This document shows, piece after piece, positions 14,597-22,046 of a stretch of 64,000 nt of DNA. Source of the DNA: a virus; IMG/VR virus record IMGVR_UViG_3300030061_003795; one strand, written 5' to 3'. The translations under genes were made by a program, and so were the position numbers. How positions within the stretch are numbered: the stretch's first letter is position 1; every line of letters starts with the position of its first letter. Below the pieces are notes generated by a model. That model had not been told where the DNA came from. It did no database searches and worked only from the letters and a program-made list of their open reading frames with translations.

Positions 14597-16642
14597 ATGG
14601 ACATTTCACAGAAAATACTATCAGACATAGTAATTCACAACAAATATGCAAAATACATTCCTCAAAAACAGAGAAGAGAAACTTGGGAAGAGCTCGTTAC
14701 TAGAAATAAAGTAATGCACCAATCTAAATTTCCTAAACTTGAAAAGGAAATTGAAGAAGCATATAAATTTGTGTATGATAAGAAAGTATTACCTTCTATG
14801 AGAAGTCTCCAATTTGCAGGAAAACCAATTGAAATAAATAATTCAAGAATATTTAACTGCTCTTACCTTCCTATAGACGATTGGAGGGCATTTAGTGAAG
14901 TTATGTTCTTACTCCTTTCAGGGTGTGGTGTTGGATATTCTGTTCAAAATCATCACGTAGATAAATTACCAGAAATAAAAATACCAACTAAAGATAGGAG
15001 ATTTTTAGTAGGAGATTCAATTGAGGGATGGGCAGATGCAGTTAAGGTTTTAATGAAATCTTATTTTGGAATATCAAGTTCAAGACCTAAATTTGATTTT
15101 AGAGACGTTAGACAAAAAGGAGCAGAATTAGTTACTGTTGGAGGAAAAGCACCAGGCCCTGAGCCATTAAAGGAGTGTTTAGTCCAAATACAGAAAGTTT
15201 TAGACAGAAAAAAAGATGGAGAGCATTTATCCCCAGACGAATCTCATGATATTATTTGTCACATTGCAGATGCTGTATTGTCAGGGGGAATTAGGAGAGC
15301 AGCTTTAATTTCACTATTTGACTTACATGACGAAAGAATGTTAGTTAGTAAAACTAACAGTGTTGAATCAAAGATTTTATCTCAAGAACACAAAACATAC
15401 ATAGATGCCTTTGGACGTCATGAAATGGAAAATGAAATAGTTCTAAAAGTAGAACAAGATGGAGTTGTTTACGATGATATTACAATTAGAAGAGATAAAG
15501 ACTCAGGTAAATTTTGGGATTTAGAACAATATAAAAGAGACGGAACTTTAGGTTGGTGGGTTTGTAATCCTCAAAGAGGAAGAGCCAATAATTCAGCAGT
15601 AGTTATTCGTTCAAAAGTGAAAAAGAAAGATTTTTTTGACCTCTGGGATAAAATAGTAGCAAGTAACACAGGAGAACCAGGAATTTATTTTTCAAACGAC
15701 AAAGATTGGGGAACTAATCCATGTTGTGAAATAGCTTTACGCCCTTTCCAATTCTGTAATTTAACAGAAGTTAATGGAAGTGACATAAAATCGCAAGAAG
15801 ATTTAAATAGTCGTTCGAGAGCAGCAGCATTTTTAGGAACTTTACAAGCAAGTTATACAGAATTTCATTACTTACGTGATATTTGGCAAAAAACAACAGA
15901 AAAAGATGCACTTGTTGGAGTAGGAATGACAGGAATTGGATCAGGAGCAGTTTTAGGTCTAGATTTAGAAGAAGCTGCCAACGAAGCAAAAGAATCTAAC
16001 GCTAAATTAGCAAAAATACTTGGAATTAAACCAGCATCAAGAGTAACTACAGTAAAACCATCAGGAACTAGCTCATTAGTTTTAGGAACTTCATCAGGAA
16101 TTCATGCTTGGCACAATGACTTTTACATTAGAAGAATGAGGTTAGGTAAAAATGAAGCTCTTTACCAATATTTAGCTGAATATCATCCAGAATTAATTGA
16201 AGATGATATATTTAAATCGCAAATTCAAGCCATAGTTTCCATTCCACAAAGAGCCCCTGAAGGTGCCATTTTAAGAACAGAATCTGCGCTAGATTTACTT
16301 GAAAGAACTAAAAAATTCAACACAGAATGGGTAAGAGCAGGCCACAGAAAAGGAGCCAACACAAACAATGTTTCAGCAACAATTTCAGTTAAACAAGAAG
16401 AGTGGGAAACAGTAGGAGAGTGGATGTGGAAAAATAAAAACACATTTAATGGTCTTTCAGTATTACCTTACTCCAATGGTAGTTATCAACAAGCACCTTT
16501 TGAAGACATAGATGAAGCTACATTCTTAGAAATGGAGGGTCATTTATCAGGCATAGATTTAAAGATGGTTACTGAATCAACAGATGAAACAGACTTAAAT
16601 GGACAAGTAGCTTGCGCAGGTGGAGCTTGTGAAATAGTATAA
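14597..16642 (+). CDS. nrdJ: Class II (adenosylcobalamin) ribonucleotide reductase, monomeric RTPR type
   Basis: PSMR, FNCS, GCGVG, RRAALI, TNPCCEI, CNLTE, TTVKPSGT, C-terminal CAGGAC. Confidence 0.92.
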   Translation: MDISQKILSDIVIHNKYAKYIPQKQRRETWEELVTRNKVMHQSKFPKLEKEIEEAYKFVYDKKVLPSMRSLQFAGKPIEINNSRIFNCSYLPIDDWRAFSEVMFLLLSGCGVGYSVQNHHVDKLPEIKIPTKDRRFLVGDSIEGWADAVKVLMKSYFGISSSRPKFDFRDVRQKGAELVTVGGKAPGPEPLKECLVQIQKVLDRKKDGEHLSPDESHDIICHIADAVLSGGIRRAALISLFDLHDERMLVSKTNSVESKILSQEHKTYIDAFGRHEMENEIVLKVEQDGVVYDDITIRRDKDSGKFWDLEQYKRDGTLGWWVCNPQRGRANNSAVVIRSKVKKKDFFDLWDKIVASNTGEPGIYFSNDKDWGTNPCCEIALRPFQFCNLTEVNGSDIKSQEDLNSRSRAAAFLGTLQASYTEFHYLRDIWQKTTEKDALVGVGMTGIGSGAVLGLDLEEAANEAKESNAKLAKILGIKPASRVTTVKPSGTSSLVLGTSSGIHAWHNDFYIRRMRLGKNEALYQYLAEYHPELIEDDIFKSQIQAIVSIPQRAPEGAILRTESALDLLERTKKFNTEWVRAGHRKGANTNNVSATISVKQEEWETVGEWMWKNKNTFNGLSVLPYSNGSYQQAPFEDIDEATFLEMEGHLSGIDLKMVTESTDETDLNGQVACAGGACEIV

Positions 16643-17202: not shown

Positions 17203-17270
17203 AAACCAAAATGAGACAAGACGACTGGATAAGTAAATTATATTATAGATTTGATTTTTCACAAAAAAAA

Positions 17271-17301
17271 TTTGGATCCCCGAATGATAATTCATATATT
17301 A
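17271..17301 (+). promoter_or_regulatory. Promoter TTTGG-N19-TATATTA
   Basis: Same motif and spacing as 10048, 39714, 56653 and 58551. Confidence 0.7.
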
Positions 17302-17310
17302 ACATAGATC

Positions 17311-17484
17311 ATGAACAAACGAGACGCACAAAAGATGAAAGTAGGGGCAACCCGAAAAAATCAAAAGGAACAAGGCTACTTTGATGGTAGGTTTGTAGAA
17401 AGGTCAGAAAAGTTACAAAATAAATATAAAAGAAAACCAAAACACAAAAATAAAAGTTATGACGGAGACGAAGACGAAATATGA
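17311..17484 (+). CDS. 57-aa basic protein, ArfA-like (absent from ORF track)
   Basis: Manual translation MNKRDAQKMKVGATRKNQKEQGYFDGRFVERSEKLQNKYKRKPKHKNKSYDGDEDEI; ATG 10 nt after promoter. Confidence 0.55.
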   Translation: MNKRDAQKMKVGATRKNQKEQGYFDGRFVERSEKLQNKYKRKPKHKNKSYDGDEDEI

Positions 17485-17659: not shown

Positions 17660-18111
17660 TGGGGTCAAAAAAAGTACCAAAAAAACCTAAACCTAAACGC
17701 TCTGCTATGAGATTTTATTGGTGGAGACGATTTGGAACCCACAAAAGACTCCCACAAAAAACCTCTCTATTAGATAAAATAAGAAATGGGGATTTTTTAT
17801 CATCTCCCTATTGGGATCAAGCTAGATGGGAGGAAACATATTCTTCTCAACACATTAAAGAAGTTAAAAAAGAAAGACCCTTAATAAGTCAAGAAGAAAT
17901 ATTAGATATAGAAAGAACCTACATTAAACGAAAAAATAGACTCTTAGAAGATGCTTTTAACGACGACACTAGACGCTTAAAACACTTAGAAGAATGTTTT
18001 GTTAAAGAATTAGGGGGTAGCAAAAAGCTTCTGTACAAATGTATAGAAAATTGTGAAGGAGATGAAGAAGTCCTTTACCACGAATATCGAGAACAAGTTA
18101 AAAGTTTATGA
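17659..18111 (+). CDS. Hypothetical protein
   Basis: 150-aa ORF (FYWWRR..LLDKIRNGDF); ATGA overlap with next gene. Confidence 0.6.
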   Translation: MGSKKVPKKPKPKRSAMRFYWWRRFGTHKRLPQKTSLLDKIRNGDFLSSPYWDQARWEETYSSQHIKEVKKERPLISQEEILDIERTYIKRKNRLLEDAFNDDTRRLKHLEECFVKELGGSKKLLYKCIENCEGDEEVLYHEYREQVKSL

Positions 18112-18905
18112 AAATATCACACGAAGTACCTATTCCTTATTTAAATCAGAGTAGAGCATTTAATCAATATGACTACTGTCTCCCTCACTTACTAGATGAA
18201 AGTGAAGAATATAAGAACTATTTCCAAAAATCTAAGGAAATGGGACGCTATATTATTATGGATAATTCCCTACATGAATTAGGTAAACCTTATGATTCTG
18301 ATAGATTATGGTATTGGATGAATTATTTTAAACCCGATGAATTTATAGTGCCTGATTATTGGCAAGATAAAACAAAAACATTAGTTACAGCTAAAGAATG
18401 GATTAACAAAGAATATCCAGAAGAAACAACCCCCGTAGCTGTAGTCCAAGCTGATTGTAAAAGTGATGCTTTTGAATGTTATCACATTTTAAAAATGCAG
18501 GGTTATAATAAAATAGCTTTTAGCTACGGTGCTGATTGGTATTACAAAGAAGGATTAAAATCAACCCCCGATAGTAATAATAATTTTATAACTAAAGCTC
18601 ATGGGAGATATAACACAATAAAAGAATTTTATGGAAAAAAACTAATATCTAAATATGACAAAGTTCATTTATTAGGATGTAATGTACCACAAGAATTTAG
18701 TTGGTATGAGGACATGCCTTTTATAGAGTCACTAGATACCTCCAACCCGGTAATTCACGGCCTCGCAGGAGTAAAATATGAGGATTTTGGATTAGAAGAA
18801 AAGCTACCGTACAAGGTAGATAAATATGAAGGAAACGAGGAGAATTGGGATACAGTATTGTATAACATCTCTAAATTTAAAGAATTCCTTCCAAACATTA
18901 AATGA
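18108..18905 (+). CDS. TGT/DpdA-like TIM-barrel transglycosylase (deazaguanine pathway)
   Basis: IIMDNS, IVPD, PVAVVQ, VHLLG, SLDTS match TGT-family strand motifs; adjacent to que genes. Confidence 0.65.
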   Translation: MKISHEVPIPYLNQSRAFNQYDYCLPHLLDESEEYKNYFQKSKEMGRYIIMDNSLHELGKPYDSDRLWYWMNYFKPDEFIVPDYWQDKTKTLVTAKEWINKEYPEETTPVAVVQADCKSDAFECYHILKMQGYNKIAFSYGADWYYKEGLKSTPDSNNNFITKAHGRYNTIKEFYGKKLISKYDKVHLLGCNVPQEFSWYEDMPFIESLDTSNPVIHGLAGVKYEDFGLEEKLPYKVDKYEGNEENWDTVLYNISKFKEFLPNIK

Positions 18906-19402
18906 TGGTAACAACAATTTCAGTAACAATTACTCTTATCTCAATTTCATATTCAATATGGATTTATTTAAGTAACAGAGATTTTAATAAATCAGCAGAA
19001 ATTAAAGCAAATGCTTTATTAGAACGATGGAAAGTAAAAGAAGAAAAAAGAATCAGAGATGACGCCTATAAAAGGAGTAGAGCAGTAGGTTTTGGAAAAA
19101 CAATAGAACATTTCGTTCCATTTATGGAAGGCTTTCCAGTAAAAGCAAAAGATGTTCAATTTTATGGTAATCCGGTAGATTATATTGGAATTAAAAATAG
19201 AAATAGCAAAACAAAATGTGAAGTTCATTTTATAGAAGTTAAAAGTGGAAGTAGTAACTTAAACCAACATCAAAGAAATATAAAGAAAGCAGTTGATGAA
19301 GGAAGAGTATACTTCGACATAGTAGAAGTAGATGGTTTAACAGAATCAGAAAAAACACTAACAATAACAAATAAACAAACTAAGGATGCAGACCGTAAAT
19401 AA
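18902..19402 (+). CDS. Membrane-anchored PD-(D/E)XK endonuclease (Endonuc_Holl-like)
   Basis: N-terminal TM; RSRAV..GK..EH..PF, FYGNPVDYI, FIEVKSG..LN..QR. Confidence 0.8.
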   Translation: MMVTTISVTITLISISYSIWIYLSNRDFNKSAEIKANALLERWKVKEEKRIRDDAYKRSRAVGFGKTIEHFVPFMEGFPVKAKDVQFYGNPVDYIGIKNRNSKTKCEVHFIEVKSGSSNLNQHQRNIKKAVDEGRVYFDIVEVDGLTESEKTLTITNKQTKDADRK

Positions 19403-19649
19403 AGTAGAATATTACTCACTATATGAATATCTTAACAAAGCTGCAGGGCCAAAATTAGGAAGAGAAGTCAATGCTGCTTCCAAAAGAACAAAACAGCCTA
19501 TAGTAAAACAATACGTTGAACAGGGAGGTTACAAGGGAGAAGTATTTTGTTATACTAGAAAATTTTTAGACGACTATTTCTATGCTGTAGAAAATTGGGA
19601 ACCTTACAACAAATACCCTGAACCCGAAGATGATGATTTACCTTTTTAA
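19386..19649 (+). CDS. Hypothetical protein with SSB-like acidic tail (EDDDLPF)
   Basis: 87-aa ORF; C-terminus PEPEDDDLPF. Confidence 0.6.
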   Translation: MQTVNKVEYYSLYEYLNKAAGPKLGREVNAASKRTKQPIVKQYVEQGGYKGEVFCYTRKFLDDYFYAVENWEPYNKYPEPEDDDLPF

Positions 19650-19658
19650 AAACAAAAT

Positions 19659-20552
19659 ATGAAACAAAAACAAGCAGTACTTAGTCTCTCAGGAGGGATG
19701 GACTCCTCAACCGTATTACTTCATTTACTAGCTCATGACTATAAGGTAACGTGTTTATCTTTTGACTATGGACAAAAACATAGTGTAGAACTTGAAAGGG
19801 CACAAGAATTAGTAAATTATTTAAATTCTAAAGCAGACGAAACTTTAGCTAAAAATGATTTAGGGGAAACCATAATGCACCATTTTGAAAAAATAACTTA
19901 CCAAACTATAAAATTAGATGGTTTATCTACCTTACTAAATTCAGCCTTAGTAAAAGGTGGGGATGAAGTGCCGGAAGGTCATTATGAAAATGGCAATATG
20001 AAAGCAACAGTAGTTCCTAACAGAAATAAAATATTTTCATCAATTATCCAAGCAGTAGCATTATCGATTGCAACTGAAACTGGAGATGAAGTTAAAATAG
20101 CAATGGGAATCCATGCAGGTGATCATGAAATTTATCCTGATTGTAGACAAGAATTTAGAGATGCCGACTACAAAGCATTTTTAGAAGGTAATTGGGAAGG
20201 ACATAAAGTGAAGACCTATACACCATATTTAGATGGAGATAAATTTGATATTTTAAAAGATGGAGAACAGTGTTGTAAATTGTTAGAAGTGGATTTTGAT
20301 GAAGTTTATAAAAGAACTAATACATCTTACAAACCAATCAAACATTATTACAGACCTGAAACAAACGCTTTTAAATGGTACTCAGATTACAAATCAGCTT
20401 CGTCAGTTGAAAGGGTAGAAGCATTCCTTAAGTTAGGAAGACCTGATCCTGTAGAATACGCAGATGAAAAAGGACCAGTAAAATGGGAAGTAGCAAAACA
20501 ACACGTAGAGCAACAATTATATGATTGGGCTGTAGATAAAGGAAGAGATTAA
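19659..20552 (+). CDS. queC: 7-cyano-7-deazaguanine synthase
   Basis: SGGMDS, FDYGQKH, TVVPNRN, YPDCR; canonical C-terminal Zn cysteines replaced (SASSVER). Confidence 0.92.
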   Translation: MKQKQAVLSLSGGMDSSTVLLHLLAHDYKVTCLSFDYGQKHSVELERAQELVNYLNSKADETLAKNDLGETIMHHFEKITYQTIKLDGLSTLLNSALVKGGDEVPEGHYENGNMKATVVPNRNKIFSSIIQAVALSIATETGDEVKIAMGIHAGDHEIYPDCRQEFRDADYKAFLEGNWEGHKVKTYTPYLDGDKFDILKDGEQCCKLLEVDFDEVYKRTNTSYKPIKHYYRPETNAFKWYSDYKSASSVERVEAFLKLGRPDPVEYADEKGPVKWEVAKQHVEQQLYDWAVDKGRD

Positions 20553-20553
20553 T

Positions 20554-20784
20554 ATGAGCGATAGAGAAATAATGGATTCTAAATTTAAAGGAGAGAATCA
20601 AATACATAAATTTATAAAACAAAACCAAGAACACATGCCAGATCAGAAATGGCATAAAATTGTTAGTTTTATTAAATCTGGAATTAGAATAGTAGGTTAT
20701 TGTTTTATTCCCTTTAATTTGGGAATAGCAACTTCTCTTCTTATATCTAGTGAAATAGTAGGAATCGTAGAAGAATTAGTATAA
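20554..20784 (+). CDS. Small hydrophobic hypothetical protein
   Basis: 76 aa, hydrophobic C-terminal half, between queC and queD. Confidence 0.55.
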   Translation: MSDREIMDSKFKGENQIHKFIKQNQEHMPDQKWHKIVSFIKSGIRIVGYCFIPFNLGIATSLLISSEIVGIVEELV

Positions 20785-21248
20785 TGGGAAAGTTTCAATC
20801 AAGTAAAGTTTTTGACGGATTTAGTACAGTGTTTCGTCAATGGAAAGCTAAAAACACACACTGTAGATTTTTACATGGTTATGGTATTTCATTTAAAGTA
20901 TATTTTGAAGGTGATTTAGATGAACGTAACTGGGTATGGGACTTTGGAGGTATGAAACGAGCTAAAACTCTTATAGATGGTAAACAACCCAAAGCATGGA
21001 TGGATTATATGTTTGATCATACTGTAATAGTAGCTAAAGATGATCCAGGGATGGATGGTTGGGAAACTATGAATGAATTAGGAATAATTCAATTAAGAAT
21101 TATTGAAGCTACAGGTGCTGAAAAGTTCTCCGAGTATATTTATAATAAGCTAAATAAATTTGTTAAAACTGAAACAGACAATAGAGTTAGAGTAACAAAA
21201 GTTAAATTTATGGAGCATGGAAAAAATGCTGCATATTATAGTGAATAA
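20784..21248 (+). CDS. queD: 6-carboxytetrahydropterin synthase
   Basis: HCRFLHGY, WVWDFG, FDH, GAEKF. Confidence 0.88.
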   Translation: MGKFQSSKVFDGFSTVFRQWKAKNTHCRFLHGYGISFKVYFEGDLDERNWVWDFGGMKRAKTLIDGKQPKAWMDYMFDHTVIVAKDDPGMDGWETMNELGIIQLRIIEATGAEKFSEYIYNKLNKFVKTETDNRVRVTKVKFMEHGKNAAYYSE

Positions 21249-21272
21249 AAAACCACTTTAAAAAATTACAAT

Positions 21273-22046
21273 ATGTTAAAAAGAATAAAGGATTACAACA
21301 AAGTACTCCCCGTATTAGAAGTATATAGGTGTGTACAATCAGAAGGGTCAAGATTTGGAAGACCCACAATAGCAGTTAGAACAACCGGGTGTACACACAG
21401 ATGCTACTTTGGAGAAGGTGGTTGGTGTGATTCTTGGTATACAAGCATTCATCCTGAAAGAGGAACATTTACATTTAATGATATTATAAAAATATATGAC
21501 GATAACCCTCAAGTAGAAGAAATGATGCTGACAGGGGGATCACCAACTATGCACCCCGCATTAGTAAACGAATTAACACATTTTGCAAATGAAAGAGATA
21601 TTATCATTACGATTGAAACCGAAGGAAGTCATTTCCTTGATACTGACTATCCTATATCTCTCATTTCTCTTAGTCCTAAGTTTAGCAATTCTATACCCGT
21701 ACTCGGTGCTATTACACCTCAAGGAAAAGTTACAGACGAAAGAATGATTAAACAACATAGTAAATTTAGACTTAACTATGAGAAAATAAGACAAACCCTA
21801 GATTACCATACAGATTATCATTACAAACCAGTTTGGGATGGGACTGATAAAAACTTAAAGGAAATTGAGGAATTTAGGGTTAAAATGAAAATCCCAAAAA
21901 ACAAAACATATATAATGCCTGCTGGAGATACTAGAAAAACCCTAGTTGAAATGTATCCTTTAGTATTTGAAATGTGTGCTGAGGAGGGATATAACATGAC
22001 AGGAAGAGATCACATAATTGCTTTTGATACTGAAAGAGGTGTGTGA
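21273..22046 (+). CDS. queE: 7-carboxy-7-deazaguanine synthase (radical SAM)
   Basis: VQSEG...G.P...VR..GCTHRC...WCDS, TGGSP, IETEG, SLSPK. Confidence 0.9.
   Translation: MLKRIKDYNKVLPVLEVYRCVQSEGSRFGRPTIAVRTTGCTHRCYFGEGGWCDSWYTSIHPERGTFTFNDIIKIYDDNPQVEEMMLTGGSPTMHPALVNELTHFANERDIIITIETEGSHFLDTDYPISLISLSPKFSNSIPVLGAITPQGKVTDERMIKQHSKFRLNYEKIRQTLDYHTDYHYKPVWDGTDKNLKEIEEFRVKMKIPKNKTYIMPAGDTRKTLVEMYPLVFEMCAEEGYNMTGRDHIIAFDTERGV

Follow-up and report, generated by a model that had tools for sequence, protein, structure and literature searches.

The 64,000-nucleotide stretch of viral DNA analyzed here (the window) carries a 57-codon gene whose product is most likely, judged by sequence and profile comparisons, a divergent relative of the ribosome rescue factor ArfA. 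We lean, with some reserve, toward reading this product as a constitutive, short-loop rescue factor of the ArfA type carried by Bacteroidota phages. A preliminary description of the DNA had proposed a phage ribosome-rescue factor. The likeness to ArfA in sequence and profile sustains that proposal, but strict membership in the ArfA family fails, since the protein has neither a Pfam match nor the KGKGS motif. The coordinates of the gene, its parts, and the features around it are collected in Table 1.

The 57-codon ORF is a real, conserved gene under purifying selection. It was found where the preliminary description had placed it, with FVERSEK and YKRKPKH in its translation, and encodes a lysine-rich protein whose 57 residues are laid out as a basic N-terminal part, QGYFDGRFVERSEK, the YKRKPKHKNK tail, and an acidic end. 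That the gene was unannotated proved true only in part: a public gene call exists, but it is unnamed, covers 49 aa, and begins at the second Met. A TAG at positions 17305-17307 shuts the frame just upstream, so that the ATG at 17311 is the first possible start, and this start is favored over the second Met by conservation of the N terminus throughout the family (residues 1 to 9 are kept family-wide, and the second Met occupies a variable hydrophobic position). Protein databases yielded 20 close homologues (50 to 95% identity) together with 25 further cluster representatives, and family loci were recovered both from IMG/VR (75 loci) and from contigs of Bacteroidota MAGs (33 loci). The ORF is thus conserved in relatives, a point on which the preliminary description had let its proposal stand or fall. 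In comparisons with three close relatives, the ratios of synonymous to non-synonymous codon changes in the frame of the gene were 10:6, 7:3, and 3:2; in the other two frames, the changes separating the same sequences were almost all non-synonymous. Within the core, every change among close relatives fell at a third codon position and was synonymous. Another ORF of 57 codons (17211-17384, + strand) opens 9 nt past the gene before it and runs into the ArfA-like ORF in a different frame. Relatives L041 and L042 keep about the first 20 codons of this second ORF (MRQDDWISK...), several synonymous changes aside, and it contains the promoter-like box; where the two ORFs overlap, selection acts on the ArfA-like frame.

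Table 1. Features of the window that bear on the ArfA-like gene, with the evidence or content recorded for each
Feature	Position(s)	Strand	Evidence or content
ArfA-like mini-protein gene, 57 codons + stop	17311..17484	+	ORF listing, homologues, purifying selection in own frame only
N-terminal segment	17317..17370	+	AlphaFold2 (32-sequence alignment) helix 3-20, pLDDT ~85; hhalign alignment
Family-defining core QGYFDGRFVE, residues 21-30	17371..17400	+	Invariant columns, hhalign and HMM alignments
Basic tail YKRKPKHKNK, residues 39-48	17425..17454	+	PDB profile search; tail-only hhalign
Acidic C-terminal tail DGDEDEI, length varies among relatives	17461..17481	+	In-frame indels, low pLDDT at 54-57
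Promoter-like box: TTTG, 20 nt, TATATTAA	17271..17302	+	Invariant in three relatives; ends 8 nt before ATG
TTTG-N19-20-TAYATTAA sites	17271, 23486, 39714, 56653	+	
Class II ribonucleotide reductase	14597-16642	+	
7-deazaguanine DNA-modification block	18108-22046	+	DpdA-like transglycosylase, resolvase-like endonuclease, QueC, QueD (PTPS), radical-SAM QueE-like

Two elements make up the family signature: a G[YF]FDGRF core that does not vary and, after it, a tail of basic character, Y-x-R-K-x-K-H. Little or no variation was seen at R15, Q18, G22, [YF]23, F24, D25, G26, R27, F28, Y39, R41, K44, and H45. The acidic C-terminal end of the protein, already pointed out in the preliminary description, was confirmed; it carries indels of 6 and 12 nt in relatives L040 and L042, that is, in multiples of three. 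AlphaFold2 supplied with a family alignment predicted a helix at residues 3 to 20 followed by a mostly extended chain (mean pLDDT, 74.5), a model that fits a peptide ordering only on its target without being diagnostic of one.

The E. coli ArfA core sequence quoted in the preliminary description matches the actual protein, and the profile check called for there upheld the ArfA likeness by way of a PDB profile search, hhalign, an ArfA HMM, and the ArfA of phage J2-1. A profile built from close family members and searched against 177,635 PDB sequences returned E. coli ArfA in its top four places (E = 0.034). Alignment of 117 family sequences with 31 diverse ArfAs by hhalign gave a probability of 78% (P = 1.7e-5) over 47 columns, pairing residues 5 to 51 of the window protein with ArfA residues 2 to 51 and opening a single 3-residue gap at GKG. 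For the control, both alignments were reduced to their match columns; the real score was then 25.8, compared with a mean of 9.2 (SD, 2; maximum, 18.6) for 400 column shuffles, which kept the composition. For the reverse search, an ArfA HMM was built solely from the 31 ArfA sequences, themselves drawn from a sample of 401 Pseudomonadota genomes, and run without filters on a decoy set of 19,542 ORFs, translated in six frames from the AT-rich loci that carry the family. Family members took ranks 1 to 39, and the top match (E = 1.9e-4) spanned HMM positions 2 to 48, nearly the full length.

Dissection of the hhalign match into parts located the signal. The tail by itself scored 14, a value reached by none of 100 shuffles. 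For the whole family, the score of the N-terminal and middle parts together was reached in 15 of 100 shuffles and is not significant; that of the middle part alone was reached in 9 of 100, with F28, R31, and E33 aligned to ArfA F25, R28, and E30. In the 'YDQHK' subgroup (MKTYDQHK...), the first 33 residues, taken without the tail, matched ArfA HMM positions 2 to 30 ungapped (14.6 bits; E = 0.023) and kept ArfA I11 and A18. Because most of the signal sits in the 14-column basic tail, the likeness could be convergent. It would then reflect convergence or composition in a small basic nucleic-acid-binding phage protein unrelated to ArfA, an explanation that we consider improbable. Such a protein would accord with the lack of a Pfam or NCBIfam match, with a PDB E value of only 0.034, and with the abundance of lysine; yet the shuffles that preserve composition never came near the real score, only family members topped the ArfA search among the AT-rich decoys, the J2-1 ArfA provides a link, and the N-terminal half matches ArfA on its own in one subgroup.

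The window protein departs from ArfA in the loop that precedes the tail. All 31 canonical ArfAs sampled carry KGKGS[YF], and the window protein has KLQNKY with a 3-residue deletion. The claim of the preliminary description that the KGKGS loop is missing held when the comparison was made from the ArfA side, where hhalign and HMMER prefer a 3-residue gap, but not in the PDB search, where the family profile aligned without a gap. This ungapped alignment, which sets V29/E30 onto ArfA V29/E30, was dropped, since three comparisons (hhalign, the ArfA HMM, and the J2-1 bridge) agreed on the version with the 3-residue gap. The preferred alignment keeps ArfA F25, R28, E30, Y39, R41, K42, K44, and H45, and the tail residues Y39, R41, K42, K44, and H45 of the window protein are identical in position to those of E. 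coli ArfA. The Pfam ArfA model (PF03889; threshold, 25.5 bits) gave no match to the window protein at E ≤ 1 or to 21 family members searched individually at E ≤ 10, and it missed the family gene in five carrier genomes. Nothing above threshold was obtained for the family in NCBIfam, PHROGs, or Pfam, and the GFFDGRF-headed family falls under no Pfam model at threshold. The 30S protein bTHX and other small ribosomal proteins were also considered as identities and received no NCBIfam support.

The ArfA of Pseudoalteromonas phage J2-1 (ATN93434.1; 51 aa) bridges ArfA and the window family. It is phage-borne, lacks KGKGS, and has a loop shorter by 3 residues, as in the window family, and its tail (ERDKTKY-x-RK-x-KHK) is nearly identical to those of some family members; its N-terminal half is that of a canonical ArfA, whereas the N-terminal half of the window protein is not. 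The family HMM matches it with 24.4 bits (E = 2e-5). It scores 41.3 bits on the Pfam ArfA model in spite of lacking KGKGS, so this motif is not strictly required by Pfam, and 28.6 bits on DUF7230 (cut-off, 27). A word-index search with the J2-1 protein returned itself alone. DUF7230 (PF23876) and PHROGs 6310, 1359, 2701, 18092, and 37108 comprise small, basic, mostly phage proteins with the same type of tail. PHROG matches of the window family were weak, and DUF7230 matched the window protein below its threshold and in the tail only (residues 37 to 53; 13.5 bits; E = 0.082). Sub-threshold matches to DUF7230 were likewise seen in 18 of 21 close family members (best E = 0.011), and in the atlas clusters around the window protein it was found in 10 to 17% of members. 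DUF7230 does not include the GFFDGRF head of the window family; its sequences and those of Pfam ArfA appear to be related. Among the loci inspected, L162 1483-1635, which encodes the J2-1 ArfA, passes both thresholds, and two bacterial DUF7230 proteins (L166 and L167) resemble short-loop ArfA variants.

The arrangement of the gene and its message was examined next to that of arfA. The preliminary description had placed a promoter box, which it assumed to be early, upstream of the gene, and the box is supported as a repeated motif; its distance to the ATG had been given as 10 nt and measures 8 nt, the TATATTAA element ending at 17302. The pattern TTTG-N19-20-TAYATTAA, defined after the sites had been seen, matched at four sites in the window, with 0.51 expected, always on the + strand and 1 to 11 nt before an ATG, and is a candidate phage promoter class. 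In form the box resembles promoters of the -33/-7 type in Bacteroidota, although its -7 element is a variant one, and its closeness to the ATG implies a nearly leaderless mRNA. The window gene ends in an ordinary stop codon, unlike arfA with its RNase III hairpin. No + strand terminator was found for it, nor any stable 3′ hairpin (z = 0.67), as opposed to -39.9 kcal/mol for the long hairpin toward the 3′ end of the E. coli arfA coding sequence. Of 87 distinct family loci, two, each from a bacterial bin (L020 2143-2175 and L122 1633-1663), do have a terminator-like hairpin inside the frame. Messages from these two would end without a stop codon, which is the arfA/brfA design.

Release-factor-dependent rescue relies on ArfA in Beta- and Gammaproteobacteria, on ArfT in Francisella, and on BrfA in the Bacillus subtilis group. 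ArfA (YhdL, PF03889; 5U4I, 5MDV, 5H5U) has an active form of ~55 aa, a size like that of the window protein, and appears to share with it the order of an N-terminal segment, an F-x-x-R-x-E mid-region, and a basic tail Y-x-R-K-x-K-H; the ArfA core DNA-x-x-AL-x-x-DPLFR is unlike the invariant GFFDGRF of the window family. BrfA and ArfT, both release-factor-dependent rescue factors (PMC6881298, PMC6299226), and the C-terminal tails of SmpB and ArfB (PMC5378476) would share the proposed action, in which vacancy of the mRNA channel is sensed by a short basic peptide or tail. The PDB profile search, taken to E ≤ 10, matched none of BrfA, ArfT, SmpB, and ArfB in sequence. In ArfA, residues 31 to 48 occupy the mRNA tunnel, and I11, A18, L19, and L24 form the core of a minidomain and the patch that binds Trp319 of RF2 (PMC5378476). 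These four residues are replaced by T14, Q21, G22, and R27 in the window protein, F25 alone being kept (as F28). Similarity to ArfA is only weak over the region that contacts RF2. The switch-loop tryptophan of RF2 is invariant in an alignment of five Bacteroidota RF2s, and we take it to correspond to E. coli W319. As most of the signal lies in the tail and most residues of the RF2 patch are replaced, the mechanism would be better supported in its channel-binding half; recruitment of a release factor is putative.

According to the mechanism that we propose, the basic tail (Y39-x-R-K-x-K-H45-K) would thread the mRNA entry channel left vacant in a 30S subunit when the message stops at the P site. 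The invariant G[YF]FDGRF-V-E-R-x-E segment would thereby come to lie in the unoccupied A site and keep a class I release factor (by analogy, RF2) open; peptidyl-tRNA could then be hydrolyzed without a stop codon and the ribosome recycled for phage messages. Synthesis would be constitutive, from the gene's own promoter, and not just under tmRNA overload; we suggest this because the gene has an ordinary stop codon, contains no hairpin or terminator inside its frame, and is as long as the truncated E. coli ArfA that is active. In this scheme, binding to the ribosome, the recruiting step, and the benefit to the phage are all putative. Rather than recruiting a release factor, a channel binder with an ArfA-type tail might act as a blocker; for instance, it could contend with tmRNA-SmpB or ArfB for ribosomes that have stalled, or it could plug vacant 30S subunits at host shut-off. 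That the tail holds most of the similarity fits such a protein, as do the family-specific head R-x-x-Q-K-E-Q-G-F-F-D-G-R-F, the replacement of most RF2-touching ArfA residues, and the precedent of the basic SmpB, ArfB, and ArfA tails, which lie in the same channel with differing outcomes (PMC5378476). We nevertheless give this possibility little credence: the colinear match extends to F28, R31, and E33 and, in one subgroup, over the whole N terminus, and the two bacterial members with the stop-less design have an arrangement typical of rescue factors and not of inhibitors.

The window has 32% G+C and all its long ORFs on the + strand, and the public copy of its contig measures 153.5 kb. Neither the locus nor the peptide matched anything in the INPHARED phage collection by DNA or tblastn search, and the phage has no close sequenced relative there. 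The gene lies just past that for a class II ribonucleotide reductase and heads a block with DNA-modification genes, whose DpdA-like transglycosylase is 36% identical to that of Flavobacterium phage immuto and 35 to 36% identical to Campylobacter phage genes; no tRNA or tmRNA genes were found within the window. Its shortness, its place at the head of the block directly after the promoter-like box, and its 26-nt overlap with the next ORF could make it, instead of an independent protein gene, a leader or upstream ORF that controls the deazaguanine DNA-modification genes behind it by being translated, but this is scarcely credible for a peptide whose sequence is kept to ~40% identity across unrelated phage contexts and some bacterial chromosomes.

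More than 100 family loci were found, mostly on phage contigs, and 3 of 401 sampled Bacteroidota genomes carry the family. The contexts that were read are phage-like, with holin, lysozymes, and runs of small genes, and a few copies are truly chromosomal (e.g., L039, in a tyrosine-catabolism region), from which we conclude that the family is mainly phage-borne and sporadic in bacteria. No neighbor gene was constant across 112 loci; synteny was lineage-specific only, and nothing in it ties the gene to translation. One phage lineage of ~25 loci (L001 3832-14319) keeps the gene among those for the proteostasis proteins ClpS, a MoxR-type AAA ATPase, and the Cpn60 chaperonin. On a 420-kb bacterial contig (L031 3901-10127), the neighbors of the family gene are a WYL/WCX regulator on one side and a reverse transcriptase on the other; past the latter come a conflict-type histidine kinase and an inactive-receiver protein, and the region looks like a defence island.

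ArfA homologues also occur in phages of Proteobacteria, where two are annotated as such, and a pelagiphage gene with an ArfA domain has been reported to be highly expressed early (PMC12753301). A survey of 1,956 FCB-group genomes recorded arfA in none of them (PMC11633108). It is possible, and we put it forward as a tentative suggestion, that the GFFDGRF family constitutes a separate class of release-factor-dependent rescue, with only its tail of the ArfA type and a head of its own for Bacteroidota RF2/RF1. Such a class would provide a rescue route for phages and a few Bacteroidota in a phylum without surveyed ArfA, BrfA, or ArfT, and unregulated, phage-made rescue would be a common way to reclaim ribosomes that stall on cleaved mRNA in the course of infection. 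If the product is the constitutive ArfA-type rescue factor that we favor, Bacteroidota phages would bring their own tool for recycling stalled ribosomes, a plausible need while host mRNA is being broken down or when RNA-cleaving defences attack. The family would then also offer a minimal, naturally diverged set of sequences that separates the channel-sensing features of ArfA from those that activate the release factor.
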